Source: a phage
Direction: 5' to 3' (one strand)
Length of the DNA stretch: 64,000 nt
NCBI GenBank assembly: GCA_024672315.1
Contig: GCA_024672315.1_4714.1
In this document: one piece after another, positions 5,125 to 52,850 of the stretch
How positions within the stretch are numbered: the first letter of the stretch is position 1
How the letters are laid out: the number at the start of each line of letters is the position of its first letter
The notes under the pieces: model-generated
Seen by the model: only the letters and a program-made list of their open reading frames with translations
Database searches by the model: none
What the model was told of the DNA's origin: nothing
Translations under genes and position numbers: made by a program

Positions 5125-5289
5125 CGTTTTTCACCTCGTCGTAAAAGTAAATAGAGTTTTGTCGAGACGCCCTAATTACTTACAACGTCGGTTCTCCCGG
5201 CTTCAGAGAATTCTTAAAATCCGTTAGTTTTGATAGATAGGGTAAGACGGCATAAAAGCCTCCCATTACGGGAGGCTCTATTAATCAGC

Positions 5290-5838
5290 TTATTTCACAA
5301 GAACAGCGAATTCGAGAACATGAATAGCTTCATCGTCCATCGGATTTGTCGTGGTATAACCGACGAAGCAATAGCCCATATCCACGATAAACTCTCTAAG
5401 TTTATCGATGACTGATGCCCCGATACGATCGTCAACAGACAGGCGACATTTACGGGTTATGTTTTGCCCGCGAGGAACGCCAGCTAACACGGATAGGAAA
5501 TGTACGATCTGGTTATTGGTTGCGAACTGCACGTAATCATCGTAGTGCTTAAGGTCTTTCATCGCAGACTCTACCGTCATACGACGACCAGGTGACACAT
5601 ACTCAGAATAAGAATAAGCTGCAATCGTGCGGCGGTCTTCAGTGAGGTAAGTATTCCCATCAGGATGATAACTCTCGATTGTTCCGTCTTCATAAGCGAC
5701 GGTCACAACAGGTGCGCCGTACTCGTCGCGACCAAAATCAATTTTACATTTATCCGAAAGCGGTAGAACCGTGCAAGGCTTTGCGTTGTTCTCATCTGGA
5801 AGATCGTAACCGCTCATCATTTTCAAAAACATAGACAT
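5290..5838 (-). CDS. hypothetical protein (tandem paralog A)
   Basis: 182 aa; N-terminus MSMFLKMMSGYDLPDENNAKPCT resembles the neighbouring ORF 5925..6458. Confidence 0.5.
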   Translation of the reverse strand: MSMFLKMMSGYDLPDENNAKPCTVLPLSDKCKIDFGRDEYGAPVVTVAYEDGTIESYHPDGNTYLTEDRRTIAAYSYSEYVSPGRRMTVESAMKDLKHYDDYVQFATNNQIVHFLSVLAGVPRGQNITRKCRLSVDDRIGASVIDKLREFIVDMGYCFVGYTTTNPMDDEAIHVLEFAVLVK

Positions 5839-5924
5839 AATAGAACCTCATGATAATAGATAATAGAAATGATAGATAGTACAACAAATTGAGGGGGTAT
5901 TATCCCACCCCCTCGTAGGGATTA

Positions 5925-6458
5925 TTATCTGACGACTGCGGTGATTTTGCCATCCATGCCGTCGTAATATGCTGTTAACTTACCAGTAAACAACTCTTCT
6001 AAAAGATGATTTACATCACTAACAAAGTTAGGATTGCCCGCTTTTACAAACTCGATATGACGCGTTTGTTTTACATCACGATCGATTAAACGGATTTCCA
6101 ACAACGCACAAATAAGGCTATCGTTAAGTTTGCCATTCAAATCCAACGCTTTCCCATACGTCGTAGCACGGACGTCTGCATACATACGGTCAACATCATC
6201 CTTCCCAAAACCACAGGAATAGGCGTACGTTGCGATGGTATTACCATTGTCCATTACATAAACGTTACCGCCTGGGTAATCGATGAATCGTTGATCCTTA
6301 TCGCCATGAGCGACGAACTCCAGTGTCGGTCTACCTAGTGAATCACGATTGAATTCGATTGTGGTCAAGCGATCTGGTACCACATGTAACGTAAACGGTT
6401 TTGCGTTGTTACGATCGCTAGTATCGCAGTTAGCCATTACTTTTACAATAACACTCAT
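5925..6458 (-). CDS. hypothetical protein (tandem paralog B)
   Basis: 177 aa; N-terminus MSVIVKVMANCDTSDRNNAKPFT resembles ORF 5290..5838. Confidence 0.5.
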   Translation of the reverse strand: MSVIVKVMANCDTSDRNNAKPFTLHVVPDRLTTIEFNRDSLGRPTLEFVAHGDKDQRFIDYPGGNVYVMDNGNTIATYAYSCGFGKDDVDRMYADVRATTYGKALDLNGKLNDSLICALLEIRLIDRDVKQTRHIEFVKAGNPNFVSDVNHLLEELFTGKLTAYYDGMDGKITAVVR

Positions 6459-6532
6459 GTTTTATTCCTTAGTAGTCCTAGTAGTAGTATTGAGGAATTT
6501 CACCTCATTAGATAGTCTAATTTAGTAATGTT

Positions 6533-6865
6533 TTACTGAAACAAGACATTAAATTCGACGAGATATCCATCGGCTCTATCACCGCGATATCTGTTGCAGA
6601 AAACACCGAATTTCATCAAGAACGCACATAACTCTTCGGCTTTGTATAACGGAATACGATTTTCGTCGAGCAGAGGACACTTATGGCTAACCCGCTCCGA
6701 CGAATCAACGCAACACAAATAAAGAAGGAATCGAACAATAGCTTGGTTCTTAGTGAAGCTCTCGAATTGACCCGCGGTTCTGAACTCATCGAGGAGCTTT
6801 GTCGTTTTCTTCAATCGTTCACGATCAAGCATGTTAACCTCAATACGAACATAACCCTCCTCCAA
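6533..6865 (-). CDS. hypothetical protein
   Basis: 110-aa ORF. Confidence 0.35.
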   Translation of the reverse strand: MEEGYVRIEVNMLDRERLKKTTKLLDEFRTAGQFESFTKNQAIVRFLLYLCCVDSSERVSHKCPLLDENRIPLYKAEELCAFLMKFGVFCNRYRGDRADGYLVEFNVLFQ

Positions 6866-6895
6866 CCCAACAGGGAAGGAGGAGGGAATATGCTG

Positions 6896-7210
6896 TTATT
6901 CTGTTTTCGGTGTTGAACCGTTCTTCTTGAAGTCGGATTCGTATTTCACGTTAGAATCGAGAACCTCACGAACGGTTTTATCTGTACAACCACGAGCGAT
7001 GTACGCATTAAGATCGTCGCGTAATTTACGCATCGTTGTTTTATCAGCATCAGAAATATCTGACTTGGTAAGACGGAATGCAATTGCATCACGAACTTTA
7101 TTCAGCGTTGCTGGGTTATTACGCTGTTCTGCAAATACTGCTTTGATGAATGTACCGCTATCTTTCGAAGCGACGGCTGCATCAAGAATCTCAATATGCT
7201 TTTCAGACAT
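6896..7210 (-). CDS. hypothetical protein
   Basis: 104-aa ORF. Confidence 0.4.
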   Translation of the reverse strand: MSEKHIEILDAAVASKDSGTFIKAVFAEQRNNPATLNKVRDAIAFRLTKSDISDADKTTMRKLRDDLNAYIARGCTDKTVREVLDSNVKYESDFKKNGSTPKTE

Positions 7211-7243
7211 CTTCTTTCCTTTAATAAACGATCATCGTCATAT

Positions 7244-8488: not shown

Positions 8489-8489
8489 A

Positions 8490-12885: not shown

Positions 12886-13161
12886 TTAAAAATCCACACC
12901 GCGACCCGTCATCGACGAAGGAACCGCGTGATAATAGAAGTAGATGTAATGGTCACGATGGCTAAAACAGTTTTTGCAAGCATAGAACTCTCCAGATCCA
13001 ATGAATGATTTAATACGTGTAACTTGAGGGTGTCGTGCGATTAACGCCTGTAAAACGATTTCCATTTGGTGTGCGCTCAGGCCCGGTCGAGCTGCGACAT
13101 GATAATGAAGCTCCTTAAGAAATCGCTTCCAGGGGTCAGGTTGTGTCGATGATCGAGGCAT
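12886..13161 (-). CDS. hypothetical protein
   Basis: 91-aa ORF; AAGGAG Shine-Dalgarno about 8 nt upstream of ATG. Confidence 0.4.
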   Translation of the reverse strand: MPRSSTQPDPWKRFLKELHYHVAARPGLSAHQMEIVLQALIARHPQVTRIKSFIGSGEFYACKNCFSHRDHYIYFYYHAVPSSMTGRGVDF

Positions 13162-13227
13162 CTTTATCTCCTTAACGGGTGCTGGTAACGCAGCATAAAC
13201 CCTCCCCGAAGGGAGGGCGGTTAACGA

Positions 13228-15038: not shown

Positions 15039-15133
15039 GGATTTGTGTTGGTCCGTCTCGATGCCCATCGTATTTTATGGATTGTCGAATGACGTCATTT
15101 TAAGGGACATCCCCGGCCTCCTCCCCAGGAAAG

Positions 15134-17263
15134 GTGTGGGGAGGAGTTTTTATCATACATTCTATTAAATCGAGCGCGATTATGTTGGATAGAATCAATC
15201 GTTTAATGAACCGAATAGCGGTTAAAAATCAGAGTAACAACACCGTGCATATCGGGGGTATCGATGCCTGGCGTCTTTCAGATGACATTCAGCGAATATG
15301 GGGTACCTCCCGATTTATGAAACATATGTTTCGTAATTTCTCTTCTAGTGGACTCAGTCTCCACAACTTTTACCTTCCCGATTTCGTTTATATTCTCGAA
15401 ACGATCATCGAAGCAAAGAATACCCGCAGTAATAAACGCATGCTGAAACACCTTATTGAGGTACTGCTGCAGGAAACCTGGTTGCAAAATACCACAATCG
15501 AGCAACCTGCAATCCTCGATAAAGCACGCATGAACAAAATGCTAACGCTCTCTTTGTTCGATTATCAAGATGAGTTTATCGACATCTATAACCGTAACGT
15601 ACCTAAATACCGACTGAAAGGATACGTGTGCGCAATGGGTGCCGGTGCGGGTAAAACAATCACCGCATTGGCTTTAAGCGCTGCAATGAACGTCGACGTA
15701 TTTGTGGTCTGCTGTCCTAAGAACACCATGCGTTCAGCATGGCAATCCGATGTAAACAAAGCCATCGTTGACCCTGCAACAGAAACCGCGTTCTGGTCAG
15801 ATACAATGCCCCCATCACAGCTGCAGAAAAGCGATAAGTATTATTTTCTGCATTACGAGTCGATGGGTTTATTAAACGATGTGATGATCAAGCATAAACG
15901 CACAGCGAAGCGCGTGTTGATCGTGGTTGACGAAAGCCATAACTTCAACGACAAGAACAGCCAACGTTCCCAACGACTGGTTGATCTCGTACAGACGATG
16001 CGTCAGACCATGAATGCGGATGTGCATGTCTTGTTTATGTCGGGTACGCCCGTTAAACAGATGGGTTCTGAGATGATCCCCTGTTTAGGTTGTATCGACC
16101 CGATGTTCCAAGGACAGGTGGTCGATAGCTTCAAAGCAATTTACGGTTTAACCAGCAGTCGCGCTAACGATATCCTCAGACATCGTCTTGGGTTCATGAT
16201 GCATGTCGTACCTAAAGAGGCTTACCGTAAAACCCGTCCGGAAGTTCAGGATGTTTACGTGAAGCTCCCTAACGGTAGCGATTATACCATCTCAAGTATC
16301 CGTGACGACATGGCGATATTTGTACGCGATCGGGCGAAGTATTACAAGGATAACTGGGGGCATTACAGAAAGATTTTTGATGATGCCTTGGACTACTATC
16401 GTAAGACTATTCGTACCGACGGAGAACGTAAAGAGCTATCTCGATACGAATCGATTGTTGCTCGTTTCCAGAAGGGTTACGACCCTGTCAGAGACAAAGA
16501 AGATGCGATGTTCTGCAACGCGTTTGAAAAACGTTCCATCATGCCGGTTCTTCCTTCTGATTTAAGGGTTGCTTTCAAAGACGCCAAGAGCGTCATCAAG
16601 TACGTTGGGTTGAAAATTCAGGGTGAAGCGTTGGCGCGTGTTCTAGGTGCAGCCCGCATTCGGTGTCATGTCGACATGGTGGAGTACATCGACTTCGAAG
16701 GGTACATCAACAACGCTGAAGCCAAAGTGTTGATCTTCACGTCGTACGTTCAGGTGGTTGAGCGCGTCGACAACATGCTTCGTGATGCGGGTTTCTTACC
16801 GGAACCCATTTACGGGAAGACCAACAAGAACATCAACCAGATACTTGCTCGTCTACGCGATGATCCTGACAGCGGTCCCGCTATCGCAACATTTGATAGC
16901 TTAGCTGAAGGGGTTCCAATGCTGATGTGTAATGTGGGTCTTTTCCTGAACAACCCATGGCGTTCATCCGATGAAATCCAAGCCATCAGTCGTCTCGATC
17001 GTGTAGGGCAAACGCAACCTGTTCGGATCTATCGTTTCATGTTGGATACAGGAAGCGAGGGTAACGTTTCTACACGTAGCCACGAAATCATGGAGTTAAG
17101 TCGACAGCTTGTTGAAGAAATCACGGGTGTCAAATACGTGGTGAACAAGCAAGACGATGTTAACTTGCAGGAAACGTTGGCGATGGAAGGATACGATCAA
17201 TACGTTACCGTAAACACCACGGAATACGATATTAAACCACGACCTGCGTTCTTGGAATGGTGA
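15134..17263 (+). CDS. SNF2/SF2-family helicase
   Basis: Walker A GAGAGKT, DExH-like VVDESHNF, helicase C-terminal motifs; track ORF starts at GTG 15134 inside a hairpin, first ATG is at 15182, so the start is uncertain. Confidence 0.65.
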   Translation: MWGGVFIIHSIKSSAIMLDRINRLMNRIAVKNQSNNTVHIGGIDAWRLSDDIQRIWGTSRFMKHMFRNFSSSGLSLHNFYLPDFVYILETIIEAKNTRSNKRMLKHLIEVLLQETWLQNTTIEQPAILDKARMNKMLTLSLFDYQDEFIDIYNRNVPKYRLKGYVCAMGAGAGKTITALALSAAMNVDVFVVCCPKNTMRSAWQSDVNKAIVDPATETAFWSDTMPPSQLQKSDKYYFLHYESMGLLNDVMIKHKRTAKRVLIVVDESHNFNDKNSQRSQRLVDLVQTMRQTMNADVHVLFMSGTPVKQMGSEMIPCLGCIDPMFQGQVVDSFKAIYGLTSSRANDILRHRLGFMMHVVPKEAYRKTRPEVQDVYVKLPNGSDYTISSIRDDMAIFVRDRAKYYKDNWGHYRKIFDDALDYYRKTIRTDGERKELSRYESIVARFQKGYDPVRDKEDAMFCNAFEKRSIMPVLPSDLRVAFKDAKSVIKYVGLKIQGEALARVLGAARIRCHVDMVEYIDFEGYINNAEAKVLIFTSYVQVVERVDNMLRDAGFLPEPIYGKTNKNINQILARLRDDPDSGPAIATFDSLAEGVPMLMCNVGLFLNNPWRSSDEIQAISRLDRVGQTQPVRIYRFMLDTGSEGNVSTRSHEIMELSRQLVEEITGVKYVVNKQDDVNLQETLAMEGYDQYVTVNTTEYDIKPRPAFLEW

Positions 17264-17268: not shown

Positions 17269-17296
17269 AAGCTCTGTCTGACATCAGACAGAGCTT
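17269..17296 (+). terminator. intrinsic terminator-like hairpin followed by TTATG
   Basis: Perfect 12-bp stem AAGCTCTGTCTG/CAGACAGAGCTT with ACAT loop, then T-rich TTATGTTGTATTTG; directly after the helicase stop. Confidence 0.6.
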
Positions 17297-17363
17297 TATG
17301 TTGTATTTGTTGCAACAATCGTATGACGTATACGCGTTGTACTTATTTAATAAGGCAGAATAA

Positions 17364-18815
17364 ATGAAACTTAAACAAAGCTGGAAAGACGAACTTCTCG
17401 CGTTAGTAAACAGCAAAAACAGCTTACAGCTGACATTAGACGACGTAAAATTTGAACTAACTGAACCGGTAAGCGAAGTGCCCGGAACGGTTGTCGTTAC
17501 GATCAAACCGAACGATGATAGCCGTTACTTTAACGAGCAGTCTCTGACCTACATCCGTCGAGACATCGCTAAAAACTTCACCGGGATCCCGTTACGCGTT
17601 ATCGTTAAAAATGATACCGCTGTAAGGGATATCATCAACACGATCGCTGAACGTTACGGATTGGTATTTGACACAACCGTCGACTTCCTCGAATCCGAGC
17701 TGAATAAACAAATTACGTTCGAAGACACCGGTATTAAAGACATTACGGTTCCGGTTGCAAACACGTCTTATGTTTGGGCTGGTAATCTTCAGTTCAATAT
17801 CGCTAACGATACGTTGAGCTTGATTACGATCATCAAGCAAACCAATCTTACGAATCTGGTTTATCTGGATGGCGTTGAAGCTGACACATCGGGTTCGTTA
17901 CTGTTAGCAACGACCTCGGTTATCGGCGAAAACGGAAATGCCGAAACAACTGAAGGTGTCCTTGCCGCCACGTACTTCCAGAATATCCTGAACGTCATGG
18001 TTCGTTATGGTGATATTACCAGCGAACAAATGCAACAAGCAATGCAGACAATTAACGAAAGCGAAGACGCTCGTAGAGTAGAGGTGCGGTCATACGGTGA
18101 CGCCGAGTTACTGGTAACCACCAAGAAAGATTGGGTTATCGGTAGCCTTAAGGGTGCTATGGTTGTTGGTCACGCTTCACCTAAACCAATCCAATACATT
18201 CTTAAAACAAAAGGCGGCAGCATTATATTGTCATTAGATGGTTGGACAAATGTCAATATCGATTGGGGTGATGGGAATAAGACGACGGAGACCTCAGGCG
18301 ATAATGAATATCGACACAATTATGCGGACACTACAGAACGTACGATCGTCGCTACGGGTACCCCTACCAACGTTGAAGATACAGAGGTACAGCAAAGCTT
18401 CACCGGTGGTAACATCACTGAAATCGTTGACTGGAACAACGGATTACCTAAGGCCCCATCATTCCTTGCGGCGAACAGTTTAACTAAGGTTCCTGATTAT
18501 ATCCCGGCATACTGGACATCGTTAGAAGGTATGTTTACGCGATGCAGCGCTATTAACAACGTGAACATCACCAAATGGAACACCCGCAACATTACTTCAA
18601 TGAAGGACCTCTTCTACGGTTGCGCTACATTCAACCAACCGATCGGTTCGTGGGATGTTTCGTCTGTTAAGAATGCAGACAATATGTTGTCTGGGTGCTT
18701 CGCGTTCAATCAGGATCTGAGCGGTTGGACGTTCCCGGCAGGCACTTCACACGTCAACTACGACGCCATGACCGCCGCATGGCAGGCTGGTTATAAACCA
18801 CACTTCGCCGAGTAA
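17364..18815 (+). CDS. DUF285 / BspA-like repeat protein
   Basis: 483 aa; C-terminal repeats MFTRCSAINNVNITKWNTRNITSMKDLFYGCATFNQPIGSWDVSSVKNADNMLSGCFAFNQDLSGW match the DUF285 pattern. Confidence 0.6.
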   Translation: MKLKQSWKDELLALVNSKNSLQLTLDDVKFELTEPVSEVPGTVVVTIKPNDDSRYFNEQSLTYIRRDIAKNFTGIPLRVIVKNDTAVRDIINTIAERYGLVFDTTVDFLESELNKQITFEDTGIKDITVPVANTSYVWAGNLQFNIANDTLSLITIIKQTNLTNLVYLDGVEADTSGSLLLATTSVIGENGNAETTEGVLAATYFQNILNVMVRYGDITSEQMQQAMQTINESEDARRVEVRSYGDAELLVTTKKDWVIGSLKGAMVVGHASPKPIQYILKTKGGSIILSLDGWTNVNIDWGDGNKTTETSGDNEYRHNYADTTERTIVATGTPTNVEDTEVQQSFTGGNITEIVDWNNGLPKAPSFLAANSLTKVPDYIPAYWTSLEGMFTRCSAINNVNITKWNTRNITSMKDLFYGCATFNQPIGSWDVSSVKNADNMLSGCFAFNQDLSGWTFPAGTSHVNYDAMTAAWQAGYKPHFAE

Positions 18816-18835
18816 AAAAAAAATAGATAGTATAT

Positions 18836-18868
18836 CTTCCTCCCTACCCATAACGGGCGGGGAGGAAG
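18836..18868. terminator. bidirectional terminator-like GC hairpin
   Basis: CTTCCTCCC...GGGAGGAAG stem; A9 run on one side (T9 on the minus strand), TTTATG on the other; between convergent genes. Confidence 0.5.
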
Positions 18869-18885
18869 GTTTATGTGGTTATGAC

Positions 18886-19224
18886 TTAGAACCAGAGTTC
18901 TTTCATGAAGTAGGCTTCCATATCGTAGATAAGCCACTCGTCAGGGATTTCTAAAGGATCGTCTTCGGTTAAGGTCAGCATGTGTAGGGCGAACGCACGC
19001 TTAATATCGTTCAGCAGTTTCTCGTCGTCGTAACCTTCAGGTAACTTACGGTCAACCAGCTGGGTTTGTTTATAGACATCGCGGAACGCTTCAGGGCTGT
19101 GTTTGTCCATCGGAAATTGTTCAGCGGCCTGAACCATCGAAAGCGTCCAGCTTACAACATTGTAACGCTCACCGTTAATTTCACTGAACTGATCATCGAT
19201 TAAACAGATTTGTTGTACGTTCAT
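18886..19224 (-). CDS. hypothetical protein
   Basis: 112-aa ORF. Confidence 0.4.
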   Translation of the reverse strand: MNVQQICLIDDQFSEINGERYNVVSWTLSMVQAAEQFPMDKHSPEAFRDVYKQTQLVDRKLPEGYDDEKLLNDIKRAFALHMLTLTEDDPLEIPDEWLIYDMEAYFMKELWF

Positions 19225-20114: not shown

Positions 20115-20182
20115 ACATGCTCCGGTTATAAGGGCCTACATCGAGGCCCCTCATTGATTTTTGATTCCACCAAACGCTATCG

Positions 20183-22813
20183 TTACAATTCAAAATCTTC
20201 ATCGATAACACGCTGGGTAAGCACTTTGTCGCTGAAGAACTCCACCTTGCGCTGATGGTATTTACGGTGCGCTTCGATAGAAGTACATACCAGATACCAG
20301 AACGTTGGCGTCATTCCTTCAAACTTCCCTTTCAGCTGACGCAGTCGTCCCAACACCTGAATGTTACCGGTTCGTGACCCCATCGCTAGCGTCATGAACG
20401 TCATCACCAAGTCAGGAAGGTCGATACCTGTACCTGCTGATTTCACGGTTGTAACGCTAATATCGTTATCCAGCAAGACCATGAAATCTTCTTCAGCAGT
20501 ATAAGGACCGATCTCTAACTCAGGAATACGCTCACTGAGATAGTGCGACAACGACTTACACATATCAACGGTTGCACAATACACCAGCATCTTCATGCCT
20601 TCCTGATACTGGTTCATGAAACCCTTGATAATAACGGTATAGATGAAGTTAAAGTACGCGAGTTTGAGTTGCTTGTTCTTCATGATAGACTGTTCGAATA
20701 TCGTGTGTGAATAAGCTCCGCCAAACCCTTTGTATCTGACTTTATCTGTACTGCGTAGTCGATATGTTACCGCATTTACCGCAATGTATTTCTTGTATTC
20801 GCCTTTCGCATAACGGGCTTCTTTCGGATACATCAAATACAACATCTGTTCGATAAACGGATCATCGGATACCGCTGTTGCCGACAGATAAATGATTTCC
20901 GGAATATTGGCGTAACACTTGACCTTAAACAAGAAATGCAATGCTTCGTGACACTCGTCATGAATCAGCAAACCTATGCCGGTCTTTTCCCAAAACTCAG
21001 CGGGATGGAAGGCATATGGTGCAACGCAATTATTCTTCTCGTAGTCCGCAATGTAACGTTGGAACATGTTCAAGGAGAACAATGCGATTTTGAAGTCGAG
21101 CTCACCTTGTTCAACCAAGGTTTGAAACTCCAACATACTGTAACGAGGAATGTCGGGATGCGGTGGATCCTCCTTAGCGTTCCCGCGTATCTCGATAACG
21201 TCCCCTGGTTCCATCCCGAAGAAGTTCAGCAGTGAGCTTCGCCAACCTGGCATGTATCTCGGCGACAGAATGATACCCGTCCGTACACCACGTCTAAACA
21301 CGATTTCCTGTGACATCGCGGTGTTATGCGTGACGATAAAGTCTTTCACCACAAACAACGCTGAAGGATCATCGATCGTAATGCAACGTGCATCCGCAAC
21401 ACGGGAAGGTTTAATTGACAGTACACGTAGCATACTTTCGAAGTATTGTCCGTCAACAGGACAGCGTTCCAGCTTCTTCGGAAGCGTAACGATTTCATGC
21501 GGACGTTTATACCGTATCGTAACCATGTACGCTAGCCGTCCCTTATGTCTCTCCCCCTTGTAGGTGTAATACGGTTGTTTAATACGTAGACGAGCATACC
21601 CACCAATCGAACGAACCAAGTAGATAACGTCATCTGAAAGCTGTTTGCTCGAAGTACAGAAAACAATAGATCCTCCCTTCTCCACCGTTCCGTCGGTATC
21701 GATAAGACCTGCGAGTATTTCGCAACGTTGTCTGTGTGACGCCATCATGTACTGTTTCGGAACAAACTTCTCCCAGGATCGTTTACCCATCAACCCCAAC
21801 TGATCAAGCGCTAATGCCGTCTCTGACCGCCCACCGTAATTGATTAACGTTGCGGCAGGCGTCTTCGTTACCGCATAGTCGTATTTCTCGCGGTACTGTA
21901 TTTCACAGTCATCCGGAAGACGACTTAACACCTTATTCAAGATGAAATCGTCAGGAGTTGTGATTATCGGGGATGTTGATAAATGACCATCCCCTAACAG
22001 AACACCAAGCACGTACGGATCAAGCGGTAGATCTGCATCAGGAGTATGCTCAGACTCACAGTACGGAATGTAAAGTCGTTTATTGGACAGCTCCAGGATA
22101 CGAATCATCTCAAGTGTATTGATAACCCGCATGGGATAAGGATTGTTTTTGTCCCATCCCCAGTTAGGTCTCATACATGCCCAGAGATGCTCGCCGCAGG
22201 CTTCAACACGGCGACCGTCAGCAAAGACAATCTCATAGAGCTGTTTTGCTTTATGGTCGAAGATATTGGTTACCTTCGTTGGTCGGCCATTAGCAGCCGT
22301 GATGGTATCACCTATCTTCAAATCGCCTAATTGACGCCATCCGCCAGGGACTTTTACGAGCGTGGTAAGCGGATTTGCTTTACCCGACCCCGTTTGAGCG
22401 GTGTTTAGGCTCATTCTGAAGGGGGTATCCTTACCCCCGTCCATGTACTCCAACCATTCTTGCTGATCTTCACGCCATGGAAACTTCCATTTCTTTACGA
22501 ACTCCACTTCTTTACCTGGCACCGGATCGTGATAAACGATTTCCAACCACTCTTTTCGTATCCCTCGGGAAAAGATAAAATCCAAAAACGATTTCAATTG
22601 TTCACGGAGTAAGTATACCTCGCTATAATCGCTTCTCGCTGCGGCATACGTGTTTATGGTATCGGTAACCATTCTCCGTGTACGAGGGTCACGCCGTTTC
22701 CTCAGATGCAAACAACGGTCTCGAAGGTAATGGCCGATAAGATGGGCAAATCGAAGTCCGTATCCGCTCAGCCTCATGCCATGCGAGAAGACGTCGATAC
22801 GAGCTAACTTCAT
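20183..22813 (-). CDS. SF2 helicase containing an intein (host protein plus intein)
   Basis: 876 aa; Walker A TGSGK is interrupted, followed after about 352 aa by T and later DExH motif LIHDECHEA and helicase C-domain motifs; ATGA overlap with the upstream beta-prime C gene. Confidence 0.75.
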   Translation of the reverse strand: MKLARIDVFSHGMRLSGYGLRFAHLIGHYLRDRCLHLRKRRDPRTRRMVTDTINTYAAARSDYSEVYLLREQLKSFLDFIFSRGIRKEWLEIVYHDPVPGKEVEFVKKWKFPWREDQQEWLEYMDGGKDTPFRMSLNTAQTGSGKANPLTTLVKVPGGWRQLGDLKIGDTITAANGRPTKVTNIFDHKAKQLYEIVFADGRRVEACGEHLWACMRPNWGWDKNNPYPMRVINTLEMIRILELSNKRLYIPYCESEHTPDADLPLDPYVLGVLLGDGHLSTSPIITTPDDFILNKVLSRLPDDCEIQYREKYDYAVTKTPAATLINYGGRSETALALDQLGLMGKRSWEKFVPKQYMMASHRQRCEILAGLIDTDGTVEKGGSIVFCTSSKQLSDDVIYLVRSIGGYARLRIKQPYYTYKGERHKGRLAYMVTIRYKRPHEIVTLPKKLERCPVDGQYFESMLRVLSIKPSRVADARCITIDDPSALFVVKDFIVTHNTAMSQEIVFRRGVRTGIILSPRYMPGWRSSLLNFFGMEPGDVIEIRGNAKEDPPHPDIPRYSMLEFQTLVEQGELDFKIALFSLNMFQRYIADYEKNNCVAPYAFHPAEFWEKTGIGLLIHDECHEALHFLFKVKCYANIPEIIYLSATAVSDDPFIEQMLYLMYPKEARYAKGEYKKYIAVNAVTYRLRSTDKVRYKGFGGAYSHTIFEQSIMKNKQLKLAYFNFIYTVIIKGFMNQYQEGMKMLVYCATVDMCKSLSHYLSERIPELEIGPYTAEEDFMVLLDNDISVTTVKSAGTGIDLPDLVMTFMTLAMGSRTGNIQVLGRLRQLKGKFEGMTPTFWYLVCTSIEAHRKYHQRKVEFFSDKVLTQRVIDEDFEL
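21323..22378 (-). mobile_element. intein with LAGLIDADG homing endonuclease domain
   Basis: About 352 codons between GSGK and T; Hint-like N-terminal block, two LAGLIDADG motifs (LLGDGHL, AGLIDTDGT), C-terminal VTHN followed by +1 Thr; first intein residue appears to be Ala. Confidence 0.7.
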
Positions 22814-25447: not shown

Positions 25448-25604
25448 AATCTCATTTCCTCTTCTACGTAGAAATAGATGACATGTTGGATATACGTTGC
25501 CTTTGCATATATTGCTTTATTTCCGTCAGAAATAACGGAAAATAAAAACAACAACATAGTTCCCTCCCACCTCCACATGGGAGAGGGAGGGCTATACGTG
25601 TTTA

Positions 25605-26348: not shown

Positions 26349-26467
26349 ACCAGGGATCCTCTTTTAAGTGTTCACATTCTAGTGTTAAGCAGTTAAAATA
26401 AACCGTCCCTTTAATCAGCATAAACATCCTCCTCCCACCACATGGGCAGGAGGAGGCGTAATATGCA

Positions 26468-29443: not shown

Positions 29444-29448
29444 GATAA

Positions 29449-29477
29449 CCCTCCCACAGCGTAAAGCGTAGGGAGGG
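29449..29477 (+). terminator. GC hairpin followed by TTTATGCCG (plus orientation)
   Basis: CCCTCCC...GGGAGGG stem, then CATTTATGCCGTC; immediately after the stop of 29078..29443. Confidence 0.5.
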
Positions 29478-29508
29478 CATTTATGCCGTCGTTCGATGAC
29501 TTAATACA

Positions 29509-30789
29509 TCAGAAACGATTTACAGTACGTCCTGTCCACGCGCTCAGGATGTTGTTACGTTCCATCTCAGCACGACGACGTAAACCGTTTGGCGACTGCG
29601 GTGCTTGCGGCATCCCCCATCCAGCAGGTTGCATGCCCATGCCCGGCCAAGCAGCGTTATTGAACATCGTACCGTTACGTTCAGCAACACGGTTCATCAA
29701 CGCATCAAACGTGCTATTACCTGCCGGTTGGTTACCACCACTTTCCCACTGATTAGGTTGGACAGGTGCGGTTTTACCTAACAGGTTATCGATCACACTG
29801 CCTGTTGAAGCAGGACGCGGTTGCATACCTTCATGTGCAGCTGCTGATGGATTCGGCTTAACCGTCGGCTGTGGACGACTGTTCAGCGTTACACCCATGT
29901 TGTATTTCGCTGGCGGAATTTGACCACGATGTTGATTAATCGGTTCAAAATCCTCGACCCAGGTAACATCACAATAACCGTTCTCTTTACCGTCGTACTT
30001 ATCACCAAACAGTTTGATGAGATGGTTCAGCGGTTCCATCAGCTTAGCGAAGCTGTGGATAAGACAATCGAAATACGGGGCATGAGGGTCGCTTGACCCA
30101 GCGTTGTACGTTTCACTTACCTCACCCGCGTGCGGGATAACGTACTCAACCAGGTTTCTCAGCATGTTAAGATCTTTCTTGGAAATCTCAACACCGCACC
30201 AGTACGTTTTCTTATCTTTCGTGCTGATATGTTCTTCTTCCATGAACGGGAAAGTAACGACCGCAACACGGGTCATCTTCTTACCCATGTAGGTTGCACC
30301 AGTACGACGAAGATAGATTTTGGACAGCGTATACGGCGTGTCACGTTTCAGCCAAACGGTGACCAGTTTGCCCAGGGTCGTTAATGTTTTATCGCTGGCG
30401 TCCGCAAGGATGTTGAAGAACTCTTTTTGCTTCGGTCCGAAACGTTTTGCTTCTTTAGGATTGATTGCGGTTTCAACCATCCAAATCAGCATGGAGCATA
30501 GCGTGGCGTTAAAACGAACAACCATCGCACGACGCAGGAACTGAAGTACTTCCGATTCGCCGTTCATCACGTCTTCACTTAGCGGATGGAACAGCACGCG
30601 TTCAGCCAGCTGATTTCCGGTACGAACTTCGGAAACCGGCATCAGCAACGGCATGCTTTCCACGGTAGCGGCAACCGCAACAACTTTACCATCCCCATCC
30701 GTAAAACGATATTCTAATTCGTGGGCGTCATTCTCAAAATAGTTAACGCTCTGTAGTGCTTTGCGATAAGCTTCGATAAGCTTCGACAT
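29509..30789 (-). CDS. hypothetical protein
   Basis: 426-aa ORF with low-complexity G/Q/P-rich C-terminus. Confidence 0.45.
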   Translation of the reverse strand: MSKLIEAYRKALQSVNYFENDAHELEYRFTDGDGKVVAVAATVESMPLLMPVSEVRTGNQLAERVLFHPLSEDVMNGESEVLQFLRRAMVVRFNATLCSMLIWMVETAINPKEAKRFGPKQKEFFNILADASDKTLTTLGKLVTVWLKRDTPYTLSKIYLRRTGATYMGKKMTRVAVVTFPFMEEEHISTKDKKTYWCGVEISKKDLNMLRNLVEYVIPHAGEVSETYNAGSSDPHAPYFDCLIHSFAKLMEPLNHLIKLFGDKYDGKENGYCDVTWVEDFEPINQHRGQIPPAKYNMGVTLNSRPQPTVKPNPSAAAHEGMQPRPASTGSVIDNLLGKTAPVQPNQWESGGNQPAGNSTFDALMNRVAERNGTMFNNAAWPGMGMQPAGWGMPQAPQSPNGLRRRAEMERNNILSAWTGRTVNRF

Positions 30790-32431: not shown

Positions 32432-32432
32432 T

Positions 32433-39381: not shown

Positions 39382-40179
39382 TTAACGTGTTCTCCTGTCA
39401 CGATGTGTATACGACTGAAGACCGATGTCCATATGCGGTAACGTCAGCGTCTGCCAGATCTGTCGTGCGTAGCGATCAAGCGTATAATCGTCAGTAACAC
39501 AATCGACGGGTTCGATGAGGTGAGTCGTATACTGGCTTTTCACAGAGAAAGGTTCGTTGTTAGCTGTATCTCCTAATCCGCTTTTCACCGTGAAGACAAG
39601 ACGTGTGACTATCATCGCCTTATGTTGCTGTTCATTGTAACGAAGGCTGCGGTATACGGCATAGCTTCCTCCTTTTAGGCTTCGGGTATAACGAAGGTCG
39701 GAGGTCGTCTCGGAAATCTGATACAGCATCCAGTCTAACGTATCTCGCCAGTACACATCATCCACATCAGGAACCGTGATACCGTACCGCGTAGGCAGCA
39801 ATTCTAAAAGCAATTTATAAAGACCGCGACGTAAGCCATGCTCTTCGGTTTCCGATAAACCGTTTCCAACGTAACGTGAAATACGTGTACGTAAATACGT
39901 ACGGATGAACATATTCGCCATCAGTGTTTTCACTCTGCTACTGGTATCCTCAAAGCGATCAACGCTGAAACTCGTTTCAATCAACCGTCCATTAAAATAC
40001 AATGCAGCAACATACATCGCATTATTGCTATCTCGTTCAATGTTTAAACGACCGCAGATATTGGCTGCGTCGTTCATGGTAAATTCTAATTTATCGTGTT
40101 CGATACGATAGATAATATCCTCCTGGGTTGCTAGGCTCGCAATGCGACGATAGCCCGGAGAAGTACGTTTTACACTCAT
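39382..40179 (-). CDS. hypothetical protein
   Basis: Track start 40218 coincides with the TATG of a TTTATGCCG element; ATG at 40179 with ACGAGGA Shine-Dalgarno preferred. Confidence 0.45.
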   Translation of the reverse strand: MSVKRTSPGYRRIASLATQEDIIYRIEHDKLEFTMNDAANICGRLNIERDSNNAMYVAALYFNGRLIETSFSVDRFEDTSSRVKTLMANMFIRTYLRTRISRYVGNGLSETEEHGLRRGLYKLLLELLPTRYGITVPDVDDVYWRDTLDWMLYQISETTSDLRYTRSLKGGSYAVYRSLRYNEQQHKAMIVTRLVFTVKSGLGDTANNEPFSVKSQYTTHLIEPVDCVTDDYTLDRYARQIWQTLTLPHMDIGLQSYTHRDRRTR

Positions 40180-40221
40180 GATTGTCCTCGTTTTCAATTT
40201 TAAGATTGCGTGCGGCATAAA

Positions 40222-40246
40222 CCCTCCCCGCCTTATGCAGGGAGGG
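40222..40246 (-). terminator. GC hairpin followed on the minus strand by TTTATGCCG
   Basis: CCCTCCC...GGGAGGG stem; minus-strand TTTATGCCG at 40213..40221. Confidence 0.5.
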
Positions 40247-40261
40247 TAGCCATTAAATGGA

Positions 40262-43151: not shown

Positions 43152-43193
43152 GGGGTATCTCCTACAAATGAAAAAGAACGTTAGGACGTATAA

Positions 43194-43217
43194 GGGAGGG
43201 AGGTTGCCCTCCCTCCC
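43194..43217 (-). terminator. GC hairpin between the 631-aa gene and the beta-prime N gene
   Basis: GGGAGGGAGG / CCTCCCTCCC perfect 10-bp stem with short loop. Confidence 0.5.
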
Positions 43218-45393: not shown

Positions 45394-46488
45394 ATGTTTC
45401 GTGTTTTAAATAACCTCCCGCGAACATCATCGGGTGTGCAACCCGTCCCTCAGAAAGACTATCTAATACGCGAAGTTCAAAGAAACCTACAGACAATCCA
45501 GAACCACTATCAAGGTTTTACCTTCGCGGTTCAGAGCGATCACATCCTTGCGTTGCTGCTCGCACAGCTCCCTATGAGATACGACATCTCAGTACAAACT
45601 TACTACGACATGATTCTCGATCTTACCCCAGAATTGGGTAATCGTGTCAAGTTGACAACATCAAGATACGCGGGTAAGTTATTCGACGGTGCTTTCTATC
45701 CGGGATTGCACGAAGCTATTATTGCAACCGGTGAAAGTCGTCTTATTTCACGTGACGTTCTTGATAACTGGCGTAATTGGTCACCAGTTAGAATCGTGAC
45801 GCATCCATACGCAAATCTTCGTTACATTCCTCTTCACCGAAAGCAGATTGAAGAAGGACGAGGTTTTGCGGTTATTATGGTTGATGTGCCTTTATTAGCG
45901 CTACAGTATCGAATGTGGTCTTTGGTCATGGGTCATAACGACGACGGTAAATGGGTGGTTAAAGAACCGGTTACAAGCTTCCTTGCGAGTTTTCCGTTGG
46001 TTAACGCATTATACTCACACAACGATGTTGTTATACGCAATCGTTGTTTATGGATATCTCCGGCTAAGAATCCACTCAAATCACCAATTTACGTTAACGA
46101 CCTTGATAACGTATTCAGCCAAGTCGTTCTGTCCGTACAGCATCATTTATTACGAAGAAGACGAAGCTACACCGACATGCTTAAACAGATACCGAGTTTA
46201 TACGGAGATCAGTACCAAGCAACCCGAATGGGCTACACCGTCGATCTTCGACAAACACGATGGGCAAGGGATCTGGGTTGTCTGTCATTATGGCAACAAC
46301 TCGTCACATTGCAAAACGTATCTGAAAGCGTCGGGTTCAGCAGTCAAATCGATAATGACCTGTATCGTGCTGCCGACCGAAGTCTAAAAGAAGGTAACTG
46401 GGAGTCCTCTCCGTTACCTGGCGATTTAAGACGTGAAGTTATTGCACAGGTTGCCGACCTCTTAAAAATTCTTCCTGCTGGTGCATAA
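45394..46488 (+). CDS. hypothetical protein
   Basis: 364-aa plus-strand ORF with ACGGAG Shine-Dalgarno. Confidence 0.5.
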   Translation: MFRVLNNLPRTSSGVQPVPQKDYLIREVQRNLQTIQNHYQGFTFAVQSDHILALLLAQLPMRYDISVQTYYDMILDLTPELGNRVKLTTSRYAGKLFDGAFYPGLHEAIIATGESRLISRDVLDNWRNWSPVRIVTHPYANLRYIPLHRKQIEEGRGFAVIMVDVPLLALQYRMWSLVMGHNDDGKWVVKEPVTSFLASFPLVNALYSHNDVVIRNRCLWISPAKNPLKSPIYVNDLDNVFSQVVLSVQHHLLRRRRSYTDMLKQIPSLYGDQYQATRMGYTVDLRQTRWARDLGCLSLWQQLVTLQNVSESVGFSSQIDNDLYRAADRSLKEGNWESSPLPGDLRREVIAQVADLLKILPAGA

Positions 46489-46554
46489 TCACCTCCCTCT
46501 TCCCTTGCATCCTCCCAACCCGTAAGGGAAGGGAGGATGGGGTGGTGGATTATG

Positions 46555-48708: not shown

Positions 48709-48783
48709 AAATCCTCCAAAAGTTATTTAGTCTGTCTACATCATCTCGTATATCTGTTAAAAAAGAAGGACGGCATAAAAAAG

Positions 48784-48812
48784 AACCGATCCAGCCGAAG
48801 CCAGATCGGTTA
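48784..48812 (-). terminator. hairpin followed on the minus strand by TTTATGCCG
   Basis: AACCGATC...GATCGGTT stem; minus-strand TTTATGCCG at 48771..48779, then GGAGGA and the start of the 717-aa gene. Confidence 0.45.
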
Positions 48813-50280: not shown

Positions 50281-50818
50281 GAATTCCTTCTAGCTCGAGG
50301 TTGTTCTCGCCGGTCTTCGGTAATAACCCACTGGCCGTTAACATCTGTGTCATCGAGTAGTCAAAGCACGGAAATATCAGGTTAACGGTTTCCTGGATCG
50401 CGTCAACATAACTATAAATGGCTTCATAATACTCACCATCATGATCTACGCTAACCAGTTCCTGACACAGTTCTTCGCTTATCATTTCATATACCGGTGG
50501 ATACCACGATTGAAATGGTCGCTGCATACGTAACGACCAATACTCGTACGTCGTATACTGAAGCACGTCATATGCCGATACGTTAATGCGGTCGAAGAAA
50601 GTATACTTGTCCATATGCTGATACAACATCGCCAGCACGGTTTCCAAGCACACCGATATCCGCACGCCGTCATCTTTCCCGTTAAGAAAATTAGGTTTCT
50701 GCCGATAACGCACAAATGCCGACGGCTTCGATTGCATTATTCCACCACCAACCATAACGTCATACTCGTATCTAACGTAAAATTGAAATGCCACCAATCT
50801 TCTACACGTGGAATCCAC
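50243..50818 (-). CDS. hypothetical protein
   Basis: 191-aa ORF. Confidence 0.35.
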   Translation of the reverse strand: MDSTCRRLVAFQFYVRYEYDVMVGGGIMQSKPSAFVRYRQKPNFLNGKDDGVRISVCLETVLAMLYQHMDKYTFFDRINVSAYDVLQYTTYEYWSLRMQRPFQSWYPPVYEMISEELCQELVSVDHDGEYYEAIYSYVDAIQETVNLIFPCFDYSMTQMLTASGLLPKTGENNLELEGIHGYVAFFNIECG

Positions 50819-51420
50819 GTACGAAGGATTTGGTTAACTTCGCTTCGCATCACCGATAAACGACAACGAAAATCGAACTTCTCATCATGGCCGTAGTCTT
50901 CATGCATGAAAACTTCATCCAGAACGAACTCAAGTTGCATGTCGACATCACGGCCAGAGATATTCCGTTTGTACAAATACAACTCAATCGTGTCGTAAAG
51001 CAACGTATGAATATCATAATTTCCGTTCGGTGAGAAATAAGGTAACCGCTCATCGAGCATCGAAAACAGATATTCGCTGTAGTTTAATAACGGGATGATG
51101 TACCGACGCCCTGTCTGTGGTGTGCGAATATGTATCGAAACCTGACTTGGGCGCGGAATAACCGACGGCTTAGAATCGTCTCTCTGAAATTGCTCTAAAG
51201 ATCGCAACAAAGGTGGCCGCATTGTAACTCTCCAACGCCCAATTGTAAGGCCCTTCCAACATGTGTTCCCATACGTGAATAAACTCACTACCGAAGACAG
51301 GCTCCAGCGCCATGGTGAGATTCGTAAGTTCTGACGCGGCCGCATGGTAAGCATCAACATGTCTTTCCATTGACGGATCGTCTTCATTGAAAATACGTTC
51401 TGTATCGCCAGCCCGCTCAA
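50737..51420 (-). CDS. hypothetical protein
   Basis: 227-aa ORF, ATGA overlap with upstream gene. Confidence 0.4.
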   Translation of the reverse strand: MSGLAIQNVFSMKTIRQWKDMLMLTMRPRQNLRISPWRWSLSSVVSLFTYGNTCWKGLTIGRWRVTMRPPLLRSLEQFQRDDSKPSVIPRPSQVSIHIRTPQTGRRYIIPLLNYSEYLFSMLDERLPYFSPNGNYDIHTLLYDTIELYLYKRNISGRDVDMQLEFVLDEVFMHEDYGHDEKFDFRCRLSVMRSEVNQILRTWIPRVEDWWHFNFTLDTSMTLWLVVE

Positions 51421-52394
51421 TAAGTTCGGTAATGAGATCTGTCCATGTCTCGTGACACGTCATCATTTCCTGCTCTCGACTTAGTATGCCGATGTCTGCG
51501 TGGACGCTGGACTCGAACCGGTCTAAAAGGACCCGAAGAACGTGCACCTTGTCGATGTATTTCACCGTTATCCAAGAAAGCGGTTGCCATCGACTCAACA
51601 TCCATCCGGTACTCGGGAACCCCAAACTCATATAGTACGGGTTGCACCGGACCGAAGACGGAGCGACGTTGTTTAAATCGTTCCTTAAGGGCAAGGCCTT
51701 GTTTAATATAAACGGGTTCATTGGCGAGCTGTTCCGCTTTTCGTTTTGCGTGAGCCAATCGAAGTTCTTCCAATTGCCCAAGCCATTCAAATTGTTCATC
51801 TGTTAGCTCCTGGGGACGTTCAACAATCGCGCCAGACGGGCAGATATTGATCGTAATGTTAATTGACGGCATCGCCATCACTCGAGGATTACTATTACGT
51901 ACGCGGACAACGTGTTCGGTTGCTGATTTACGATCGACGCAATACTCTGTTTCTTGGAACTCAAATGCTTTTAACGGCGTTGGTTTTGTTTGACGTTTAG
52001 GAACGCGGCCAAGATCAACAATATAGGCATAATCGCACACACGTTCTATTCCGTAAATACGGTTATCCGACCAGTTCTTACCAAACAGCTTATTGTGATG
52101 ATAAGACAGATATTCGGTTACCATACCCTGGACAACATCGAAGTCTTCTCGAAATTCAGGTTGGTACCAAATCGGGCCGAGAATATCTGCGAACGATTCA
52201 TGACGATATCGAGGATCATGTCGAGTCCAGGTCATTCTCTGGTTAAGATCGAAATCCACCAACAACTCGGTTAATTGCAATTTTTCCTTCGGAGAAAGCT
52301 GGCGTTGATGATGCAAACTCAGGCAATCGATAAGCGGTAATGAAACCCACGATGCTAATGTGTACAAATCGATCCTGGCTAATCTCTTGGTCAT
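51417..52394 (-). CDS. hypothetical protein
   Basis: 325-aa ORF. Confidence 0.45.
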   Translation of the reverse strand: MTKRLARIDLYTLASWVSLPLIDCLSLHHQRQLSPKEKLQLTELLVDFDLNQRMTWTRHDPRYRHESFADILGPIWYQPEFREDFDVVQGMVTEYLSYHHNKLFGKNWSDNRIYGIERVCDYAYIVDLGRVPKRQTKPTPLKAFEFQETEYCVDRKSATEHVVRVRNSNPRVMAMPSINITINICPSGAIVERPQELTDEQFEWLGQLEELRLAHAKRKAEQLANEPVYIKQGLALKERFKQRRSVFGPVQPVLYEFGVPEYRMDVESMATAFLDNGEIHRQGARSSGPFRPVRVQRPRRHRHTKSRAGNDDVSRDMDRSHYRTY

Positions 52395-52485
52395 ACTCTT
52401 TTCCTAAGTCCCCATTGTTTATACACACGATATCTGGGAATAGTTAAAATATACGGCGTAAAACGAAGCAGGAGAGTTTCTGACG

Positions 52486-52806
52486 TCATTTTCTCCCTCT
52501 TCGAATACCACCGATACCTCTTTCGTCTAAGACGTCCCAGGCACGCTTTATTTCATCCTCCGTTGCTCTGGTATCTGGAGGGACAACCATAACACAGTCG
52601 TGGAATGGCCAATGTGTAGGTCTGGGATTAGCGAACAAATCATCCCATTCAAATGTCCATTCTTTCTTTGAGCGATTGTAATAGAGCGTAAGGTACGTGT
52701 TGGTATACGCCGGATAACCACGCATAACCTCAATATCCTTGCGATCTTGCCGTTCCTGATTCCAATCGTTAAACCGCTTTCTTATTTTCTCCCACCACTT
52801 TCCCAT
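52486..52806 (-). CDS. hypothetical protein
   Basis: 106-aa ORF; AGGAGA Shine-Dalgarno; TTTATGCCG about 20 nt upstream. Confidence 0.4.
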   Translation of the reverse strand: MGKWWEKIRKRFNDWNQERQDRKDIEVMRGYPAYTNTYLTLYYNRSKKEWTFEWDDLFANPRPTHWPFHDCVMVVPPDTRATEDEIKRAWDVLDERGIGGIRRGRK

Positions 52807-52828
52807 GCTTTCTCCTACGCGGCATAAA

Positions 52829-52850
52829 AGCCTGCCCCGAAGGACAGGCT
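52829..52850 (-). terminator. hairpin followed on the minus strand by TTTATGCCG
   Basis: AGCCTG...CAGGCT stem; minus-strand TTTATGCCG at 52820..52828. Confidence 0.45.

Follow-up and report, generated by a model that had tools for sequence, protein, structure and literature searches.

Known terminators of phiKZ-like phages and the element under study

The transcript ends of phage phiKZ have been mapped by Oxford Nanopore Technologies (ONT)-cappable-seq (Putzeys et al. 2024, microLife; PMC10914365), and most of its predicted intrinsic terminators, with 61 sites, share the sequence 5'-BCCYCCCCHWWDGGGRRGGBYTTATKYYGT-3', which is a stem-loop followed by TTAT, the 3' ends lying at this motif (PMC10914365). 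In phage 201phi2-1 a terminator 'motif A' (n = 59) was found to bear, in the description of its authors and not by base-by-base comparison, a strong resemblance to the phiKZ terminator motif, and longer stems arise there by combination of motifs (PMC11512511). Eight strong 201phi2-1 terminators, picked to span the motif classes, lowered downstream expression in uninfected P. chlororaphis in a terminator-trap assay and thereby displayed terminator activity in vivo (PMC11512511); the assay used the host RNA polymerase (RNAP) of uninfected cells, and activity with the host enzyme fits an intrinsic mechanism. In a stretch of 64,000 nucleotides of phage DNA (NCBI GenBank assembly GCA_024672315.1, contig GCA_024672315.1_4714.1; the whole stretch is hereafter the window), intergenic GC-rich hairpins directly followed by the 9-mer TTTATGC(C/T)G were observed repeatedly. 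These modules are, with a probability of roughly 0.85, factor-independent (hairpin-dependent) terminators of the type conserved in the phiKZ-like, nucleus-forming jumbo phages (Chimalliviridae). The element is already described in phiKZ and 201phi2-1, and the present case is a new example in a Goslar-like E. coli phage.

A 12-kb stretch of the window returned Escherichia phage vB_EcoM_Goslar (Goslar) as its sole match, at 95.4% identity, and the whole window aligns collinearly with Goslar 127729-191761 with identities of 95.3-96.8%. Goslar is a nucleus-forming jumbo phage and a phiKZ relative (Chimalliviridae), and homologues of the nuclear-shell protein, PhuZ tubulin, DNA polymerase, terminase and three RNA-polymerase subunits are encoded in the window.

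Occurrence and anatomy of the seven modules

Exactly seven copies of TTTATGCYG were detected in the window against 1.12 expected, a number reached by 0/100 dinucleotide shuffles, and the pattern is real and strongly non-random. The original prediction had placed all seven behind GC hairpins, and every one of them was recovered at the coordinates and on the strand given there, directly preceded by a stable stem-loop (-16.6 to -23.5 kcal/mol, z-scores from -2.5 to -4.2) and with a tail reading T-TTAT-G-C-C/T-G, so that TATG is present in all. The 9-mer had been expected to be rarer in coding sequence, and indeed all seven copies fall within the ~8% of the window outside gene calls based on open reading frames (ORFs), with none inside credible coding sequence. 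Two of the modules overlap doubtful ORFs only: one is 39382..40218, whose longest-ORF start coincides with the ATG of 40213..40221 and which has an in-frame ATG with a GAGGA Shine-Dalgarno sequence 42 nt downstream, and the other, ORF 29483..29752, is antisense to a gene of 426 amino acids. No family matching the element was returned by an Rfam search of the window.

The stem CCCTCCC/GGGAGGG, formerly taken as common to the set, was found in five modules (5279, 13219, 26456, 29447 and 40247), whereas other GC-rich stems are present in the remaining two (48811, AACCGATCTGGC; 52851, GAGCCTGTCC). The module at 5247..5279 (minus strand) has the stem-loop AGAGCCTCCCG-TAA-TGGGAGGCTTT followed by TATGCCGT (-17.6 kcal/mol, z -4.1), begins 10 nt past the gp143-homologue stop (gene 5290..5838), precedes the gp142 homologue by 126 nt and is 100% identical in Goslar, where 132985..133005 is annotated as 'putative transcriptional terminator'. 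The module at 13190..13219 (minus), GCCCTCCC-UUCG-GGGAGGGT and then TTATGCTGC, begins 8 nt past the gp157-homologue stop, carries its G 33 nt before the start of 12886..13161 and deviates by 1 mismatch from the published phiKZ 3' half-consensus; in its orthologue on a 237.5-kb IMG/VR contig a stem G.U becomes A-U and TGCTG becomes TGCCG. At 26416..26456 (minus), CCTCCTCCTGCC-CATGT-GGTGGGAGGAGG is followed by ATG and TTTATGCTG (-23.5 kcal/mol, z -4.0), beginning 11 nt past the gp170-homologue stop and being 100% identical in Goslar. The only plus-strand member, 29447..29489, comprises AACCCTCCCA...TAGGGAGGG, CA and TTTATGCCGT; it begins 3 nt past the stop of 29078..29443, the sole plus-strand gene there, the next gene is convergent (29509..30789, minus) and no co-directional gene follows, while in comparison with Goslar the loop and inner stem are changed and the outer stem and tail unchanged.

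The module at 40212..40247 (minus), ACCCTCCCTGC-ATAAG-GCGGGGAGGGT and then TTATGCCGC (-22.5 kcal/mol, z -3.9), begins 14 nt past the gp184-homologue stop, and its orthologue in a 183-kb IMG/VR contig shows a G.U to A-U change. The module at 48771..48811 (minus) has the non-CCCTCCC stem AACCGATCTGGC-UUCG-GCTGGATCGGTT followed by CTTT and TTTATGCCG (z -4.2); it lies 196 nt past the gp243 homologue, with its G 66 nt before the DNA polymerase start (48708), and is 100% identical in Goslar, in which 176545..176568 is annotated as a terminator. The last module, 52819..52851 (minus), GAGCCTGTCC-UUCG-GGGCAGGCTT and then TTATGCCGC, begins 25 nt past the gp235-homologue stop with its G 17 nt before the start of 52486..52806, and its Goslar counterpart 180588..180607 is annotated as a terminator. 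The Goslar record thus labels the orthologues of 3/7 modules as putative terminators already. A spacing of 20-45 nt before start codons had been put forward for three named genes; measured from the G the distances are 33, 17 and 66 nt, and the spacing is not uniform.

Position, orientation and RNA-level signatures

The hairpin begins 3-25 nt past the stop of a same-strand gene in 6/7 modules, and all seven are co-oriented with the upstream gene. In an unbiased hairpin scan, TATG was found 0-6 nt past the stem in 9/38 intergenic versus 5/141 coding hairpin-strands of the window and at the stem end in 36/134 intergenic versus 10/629 coding hairpin-strands of Goslar; the hairpin-TATG association is not cherry-picked. 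Orientation was equally skewed, with TATG at 11/23 window hairpins co-oriented with the upstream gene versus 1/19 of opposite orientation, and at the stem end of 34/76 versus 3/59 Goslar intergenic hairpins, respectively. Where the modules lie and how they are oriented is therefore as expected of terminators. In the T4 control, TATG followed 2/20 intergenic hairpins, both resembling ordinary start codons.

These placements also bear on the idea that the modules stem from a small DNA element, repeated or mobile and similar to repetitive extragenic palindromes (REP) or miniature inverted-repeat transposable elements (MITE), that has spread through the genome without any specific role in transcription. 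Such an element is favoured by some 13 similar (several identical) hairpins of ~32 nt, CCCTCCTCC-AACCC-GTAA-GGG-AAGGAGGAGGG, at different Goslar loci; however, copies are found only at gene ends and oriented as the upstream gene, stems of unrelated sequence bear the same tail (48811, 52851, 17269), and the same architecture exists in genomes without nucleotide similarity. Spread by recombination is moreover compatible with terminator function and not its alternative, and the chance that the modules are merely repeats appears negligible.

Several signatures place the function of the terminator modules at the RNA level. C-G-closed UUCG tetraloops in tandem-gene contexts show sense:antisense ratios of 3:0 (window), 7:0 (Goslar) and 12:0 (phiKZ); the stem 17269-17296 differs between window and Goslar by a compensatory T-A to C-G change, the window TATG being CATG in Goslar; and two orthologous modules in metagenomic Goslar-like contigs display G.U to A-U differences. 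Because UUCG occurs only on the sense strand and compensatory and G.U to A-U changes are seen, the module structure acts as RNA on the transcribed strand. Counts of sense-versus-antisense stability and of G.U versus A.C were set aside, as the stem finder accepts G.U and penalises A.C, and because of this bias the RNA-level argument rests on the orientation of the UUCG loops. The sequence of the stem, and not just its pairing, is conserved, the purine fraction of the 3' arm in Goslar being 0.77 in TATG-tailed hairpins versus 0.49 in other intergenic hairpins. The YYG extension after TATG is likewise linked to the hairpin, being present in 20/31 tandem modules of Goslar versus 14/149 hairpin-less intergenic and 103/882 coding TATG sites.

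Comparison with phiKZ and canonical terminators

The published 3' half-consensus of phiKZ matched 9 sites in the window versus 2.2 expected, and 8/9 are modules described here, while the full 30-nt consensus found one window site only (5247-5276, 2 mismatches) because stem and loop lengths vary. The same scans run on phiKZ 1-150 kb revealed the same modules, and the position frequencies around TATG are nearly alike in Goslar and phiKZ, following GGGRRGG-N-TTATG-Y-Y-G-T. Shared with phiKZ are the stem polarity, with a CCYCCC 5' arm and a GGGRRGG 3' arm, the tail YTTAT-K-YY-G-T, and the intergenic location in the orientation of the upstream gene, convergent genes being separated by bidirectional forms. 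Differences are the host (E. coli here), the GC content (45% here versus 37% in phiKZ), the +2/+3 bases, mostly C-C/T here (TATGCCG/TATGCTG) and mostly T/C-T/C in phiKZ (TATGTTGT), and the fourth tail base, which alternates between G and A here and between G and T in phiKZ. Goslar, unlike phiKZ, also harbors an extra family of long, similar (several identical) bidirectional hairpins, and phiKZ terminators are known from mapped transcript ends whereas the modules of the Goslar lineage are recognised from sequence.

In common with the canonical Rho-independent terminator, the modules have a GC-rich hairpin, a U-rich stretch and a predicted release few nt past the stem; unlike it, their U-run of 2-6 nt is interrupted by A, a conserved G-YY-G-T follows, and the arms show a strong pyrimidine/purine polarity. 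Only 48771-48811 has a longer T-run (CTTTTTTAT), and a standard hairpin-plus-T-run scan of positions 1-20000 listed only 13213-13200 and 17268-17297 among the modules.

A scan of IMG/VR for GGGAGGGTTTATGCCG gave 42 stretches, only 8 of which are true hairpin-bearing modules, 7 of them on contigs of 183-269 kb (one being Goslar) and the eighth on a contig of 31 kb. The GC content is 56-57% in two of the large module contigs, which share hardly any or no nucleotide similarity with Goslar or phiKZ. Most of the GGGAGGGTTTATGCCG matches were rejected as modules, since they represent one conserved hairpin-less stretch (…AAGCCTATAACCAAGTTTGGGAGGGTTTATGCCGCCAA…) recurring in unrelated small contigs. 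This stretch (IMG/VR loci L010-L051, e.g. L011, L015 and L017) looks like coding sequence and is unrelated to the terminator modules.

Published phiKZ transcript ends at the modules

The transcription start sites P001-P079 and termination sites T001-T066 (bioRxiv version, Putzeys et al.) were compared with 61 intergenic hairpin-plus-TATG sites of phiKZ 1-150 kb. A published 3' end lies within 6 nt of the G at 21/61 sites, with offsets of -3 (1), -1 (8), +1 (6) and +2 (6) but no offset of 0; the RNA terminates on a pyrimidine in 21/21, followed in the sequence by G in 13/21. Mapped starts within 3 nt of the G were found at only 2/61 sites (94329 and 145658), corresponding to the late starts P049 (94330) and P075 (145659), both of which use a second TATG located 8-11 nt past the stem and not the stem-abutting one, and a distinct start (early, middle or late) is found 4-80 nt further downstream at 11 sites. 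Transcripts of phiKZ thus end at the TATG(YY)G tail, to which 3' ends map and starts almost never do. Two of these points, that 3' ends fall on pyrimidines before G and that the module TATG is essentially never a start, were not found stated in the accessible phiKZ papers. Coordinates, and not the printed upstream sequences, were used for this cross-check. In the start-site table the 50-nt sequence printed for P041 (81776, minus) is that of the plus strand just upstream of 77926 (P040), and the sequence column seems to be shifted by one row at P040/P041.

Published 3' ends alone fit release or trimming alike, and the modules might instead be a post-transcriptional signal, as an RNA processing site, a 3'-exonuclease stop that stabilises the mRNA or the site of a phage RNA-binding or export factor, rather than a place of polymerase release. 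Stable 3' hairpins generally stop 3' exonucleases few nt past the stem, and the conservation of stem sequence in the purine-rich 3' arm speaks for such a signal; on the other hand, in uninfected cells the 201phi2-1 terminators reduce the expression of a reporter, a read-out at the level of transcription (PMC11512511), YYGT is conserved at and beyond the mapped 3' ends and so would not be in the trimmed RNA, and enhanced crosslinking and immunoprecipitation (eCLIP) of ChmC, a nucleus-associated RNA-binding protein, gave no defined motif, its binding clustering near start codons. An RNA processing site had been among the first suggestions and drew no positive support, and a post-transcriptional role as a whole is considered highly improbable.

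The TATG word and late promoters

TATG with its G at +1 is the necessary core of the late promoters of the phiKZ non-virion RNA polymerase (nvRNAP), in which every base of TATG is required for initiation (Yakunina 2015, PMC4666361), and the naming of TATG as this promoter core in the original prediction agrees with the phiKZ literature (PMC4666361). The module TATG is identical to that of the phiKZ late promoters, with the G as the conserved position (PMC4666361; gp123 pocket, PMC12809450). Validated phiKZ late promoters such as P119L differ, however, in having no upstream hairpin and no YYG(T) extension, and the G of the phiKZ module is a transcript end whereas the G of the late promoter is a transcript start.

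Under a rival reading the module is a dual element, in which the hairpin ends the upstream transcript and the adjoining TATG serves as an nvRNAP late promoter with G as +1, possibly with the same polymerase re-initiating; every module would then close one transcript and open another. Goslar encodes a homologue of gp123 (gp039), in which 6/12 pocket residues are identical with 2 aromatic swaps at 24% overall identity, a tentative comparison made on a low-identity pairwise alignment; some intergenic regions of 43-70 nt are filled by hairpin, TATG and Shine-Dalgarno sequence (e.g., 52807-52876); a divergent Goslar region has one hairpin-less TATGCCGT 24 nt upstream of a virion gene; and the phiKZ late starts P049 and P075 occur 8-11 nt past a terminator hairpin. 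TATG-YYG is also commoner in Goslar at tandem than at convergent junctions, as given below. Against this, the two phiKZ starts close to the G both stand at a second TATG, and the separate downstream starts at 11 phiKZ sites point to promoters apart from the tail. TATG is as frequent at convergent as at tandem junctions (12/25 versus 22/51 in Goslar; 16/25 versus 22/51 in phiKZ), is often found on both strands of one bidirectional hairpin, and at 29447-29489 a full TTTATGCCGT is present with no co-directional gene behind it to be driven. The G is replaceable in the modules (TTATA variants at 43184, 20122 and 58291; K in the phiKZ consensus), yet all TATG bases are needed for initiation, and the validated P119L has neither hairpin nor YYG. 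Taken as a general role, the fused terminator and late promoter that had been envisaged is not supported, in view of the convergent-junction counts and of the start at G in only 2/61 phiKZ sites; minority arrangements of this kind do exist in phiKZ, by way of an extra TATG. As an account of the modules the dual element is quite unlikely. The divergent, promoter-only intergenic regions of Goslar revealed no consistent TATGYYG, several being devoid of any TATG, and Goslar late promoters are therefore not definable from them.

A further idea is that the terminator tail and the late-promoter core are the same word because one protein pocket reads both, which we regard as unlikely; the pocket residues retained in gp039 make a shared-pocket pause or termination mechanism conceivable. 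The elongating enzyme would then capture TATG single-stranded in the bubble and pause at U|G as the hairpin forms; such a pause would allow termination with an unusually short U-tract and might occasionally hand over to re-initiation. If true, one core-subunit pocket would set both the start and the stop of a sigma-embedded polymerase.

Start codons on module ATGs

The spacing of GGGAGGG-TTT-ATG resembles a Shine-Dalgarno sequence with its start, so that the GGAGG of the 3' arm and the ATG 4-5 nt on could be read as a translation-initiation region for small peptides or true downstream gene starts, and four Goslar gene starts are annotated on module ATGs in NC_048170, namely gp047 (49772), gp111 (117666), gp167 (152272) and gp183 (166924), while the longest-ORF start of window ORF 39382..40218 likewise falls on a module ATG. 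The reading frames that begin at module ATGs are short, though (median 17 codons), and mutually unrelated, the motif is present at convergent junctions, the GGAGG is locked within a stem of -16 to -24 kcal/mol, and where the frame continues a downstream in-frame ATG has its own Shine-Dalgarno sequence, as in gp111 and gp183. Translation initiation at the modules can be given practically no credence, and the Shine-Dalgarno-plus-ATG look is a mimic. The four Goslar start codons are probably mis-annotated onto a terminator-tail ATG, most likely because this ATG right after the GGAGG stem mimics a Shine-Dalgarno sequence and start.

Proposed mechanism and weighing of the terminator reading

Under the terminator reading, the nascent RNA would fold into a GC-rich stem-loop, pyrimidine-rich in the 5' arm, purine-rich in the 3' arm and often capped by a UUCG tetraloop, at a time when the U/A hybrid held by the polymerase is short and weak. 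Release would follow 5-9 nt past the stem, in the short UUAU-G-YY-G tail, at pyrimidine|G steps (UAU|G, GYY|G), so that the 9-mer TTTATGC(C/T)G may be regarded as a release zone combining a weak U/A hybrid with two Y|G steps, and not primarily as a start site. In TATG-YY-G, each of the two conserved G's falls on the base after mapped phiKZ ends. Elemental pauses of cellular multisubunit RNAPs prefer Y(-1)G(+1), a preference that the conserved G's appear to resemble, and by this analogy the conserved G and YYG may be pause or release positions.

The proposal of a terminator with a conserved U-tract is backed by the modules' position and orientation, the RNA-level signatures, the match to the phiKZ consensus and the phiKZ 3' ends on the TATG(YY) tail. 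Anatomy, position and orientation, RNA-level signatures and family-wide conservation are direct observations of the present analysis, and the transfer of terminator function from phiKZ and 201phi2-1 to this Goslar-like phage would follow by analogy with them.

Several points weigh against this reading. The uninterrupted U-tract of ~6-8 nt is not seen, and most modules fall outside the canonical hairpin-plus-U-tract definition. The tail spells the exact nvRNAP promoter word TATG, which a pure terminator model alone does not explain. TATG-YYG in Goslar is found in 20/31 modules with a co-directional gene following versus 6/29 at convergent junctions, a contrast that hints at an additional downstream-directed constraint and is kept as a lead only; it is absent from phiKZ, with 12/31 tandem versus 6/20 convergent. 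These Goslar counts use hairpins redefined by RNAfold, and an earlier count in which TATG-YYG was wholly absent from Goslar convergent junctions (0/12) was rejected as an artefact, the stem finder having missed internal-loop hairpins. The phiKZ 3' ends, with a resolution of ~2 nt, could partly reflect trimming by 3' exonucleases back to the hairpin, and function in this phage and in Goslar is attributed through motif homology.

Further hairpins with TATG or TATA in the window

Additional TATG sites behind hairpins had been noted at five positions, and those at 17297, 18872, 25555 and 61373 hold (gaps of 0-4 nt) while that at 46545 is weak, its TATG lying 9-12 nt off the stem. The terminator module at 17269..17304 (plus), with a 12-bp stem and the tail TATGTTGT, lies 5 nt past a helicase gene stop (z -5.3), and its counterpart 145042..145065 is annotated as a terminator in Goslar. 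A bidirectional hairpin at 18831..18879 (both strands) separates the convergent genes 17364..18815 (plus) and 18886..19224 (minus), with the plus-strand tail GGTTTATGTGGTTATG, and its Goslar counterpart has TATG on both strands. The terminator module at 25551..25591 (minus), CCCTCCCTCTCCC...GGGAGGG, AAC and TATGTTGT, follows the gp168 homologue (z -3.2), and the bidirectional hairpin CCTCCTCTGGG...CCCAGAGGAGG at 61337..61376 (both strands) stands between convergent genes with TATG past the stem on both strands (61342-61370; z -6.3).

Three variant modules on the minus strand differ in the tail. At 43184..43217, after the ChmA-homologue nuclear-shell gene, A replaces G (GGGAGGGAGG-GCAA-CCTCCCTCCC, then TTATACGTCC), and the sequence is 100% identical in Goslar; TTATA variants are seen at 20122..20150 after a helicase gene (GGGGCCT-CGATGT-AGGCCC, then TTATAACCGG) and at 58291..58327 (CCGTCTCGAG-TTAT-CTCGAGACGG, TAAG, TTTATACTG). 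The hairpin CCTCCTCCCCA...TGGGGAGGAG followed by TTTTTATCATAC at 15117..15160 (plus) is located in a divergent intergenic region upstream of a helicase gene and may be a leader or attenuator-type terminator; its counterpart at Goslar 142891..142915 is annotated as a terminator. The tail-less hairpin 5891-5914 also has a Goslar orthologue annotated as a putative terminator.

The Goslar family of ~32-nt hairpins introduced above has its ~13 copies at 4150, 15778, 27746, 36846, 48106, 49776, 61009, 63715, 71990, 93445, 134585, 224382 and 237250; they contain an inner mini-hairpin (GNRA loop on one strand), occupy mostly convergent junctions and are often flanked by TATG on either side. Of these copies, one is at the very right end of the Goslar record, and the very left end holds a partial copy that has the same TATGCCGTCAAGC tail. 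The window holds two copies: the long hairpin CCCTCCTCC-AACCC-loop-GGG-AAGGAGGAGGG at 6847..6896 (both strands), with TATG on both strands and the plus-strand tail AATATGCTGT, and the bidirectional hairpin at 46510..46543 (both strands), between the convergent gene 45394..46488 (plus) and the DNA polymerase gene (minus), to which the weak plus-strand TATG mentioned above belongs.

Other features of the window

The sequence TATATTACYTANGTGA is present in three perfect intergenic copies at 15014-15029, 39348-39363 and 45204-45219 (all minus), preceded by TTTCA(C/G)GG(C/T), one copy being upstream of the nuclear-shell gene; with up to 2 mismatches, 8 matches were found in the window versus 0.9 expected. 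Its core TATATTAC is the same as in the phiKZ intergenic TTTAAACAG-TATATTAC sites, which are labelled early (virion RNAP) promoters in a published table and often lie 30-60 nt downstream of terminator modules.

The superfamily 2 (SF2) helicase gene (ORF 20183..22813, minus) contains a ~1.05-kb in-frame insertion at 21327-22375, absent from Goslar, and the match of this part to LAGLIDADG homing-endonuclease domains (PF14528, E=3e-6) suggests an intein. Goslar 167847-169281 (1.4 kb, HNH endonuclease gp186) is missing from the window, the relevant window positions being 41141-41157 and 41544-41910. The 386 bp annotated as a group I intron in Goslar are kept in the window (41158-41543, 96% identical), where this segment had no Rfam match at the gathering threshold, and are followed by a 367-bp segment without Goslar counterpart (41544-41910) adjoining the RNAP beta' subunit gene.

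Implications for Goslar-like jumbo phages

Goslar is an E. coli model for phage-nucleus biology, and the modules, read as terminators, give a reliable marker, recognisable from sequence, of where transcription units end in Goslar-like E. coli jumbo phages. The comparison with the phiKZ transcript ends also sharpens the question of how the 4-nt word TATG specifies late promoters, given that identical TATGs are present at dozens of terminators.

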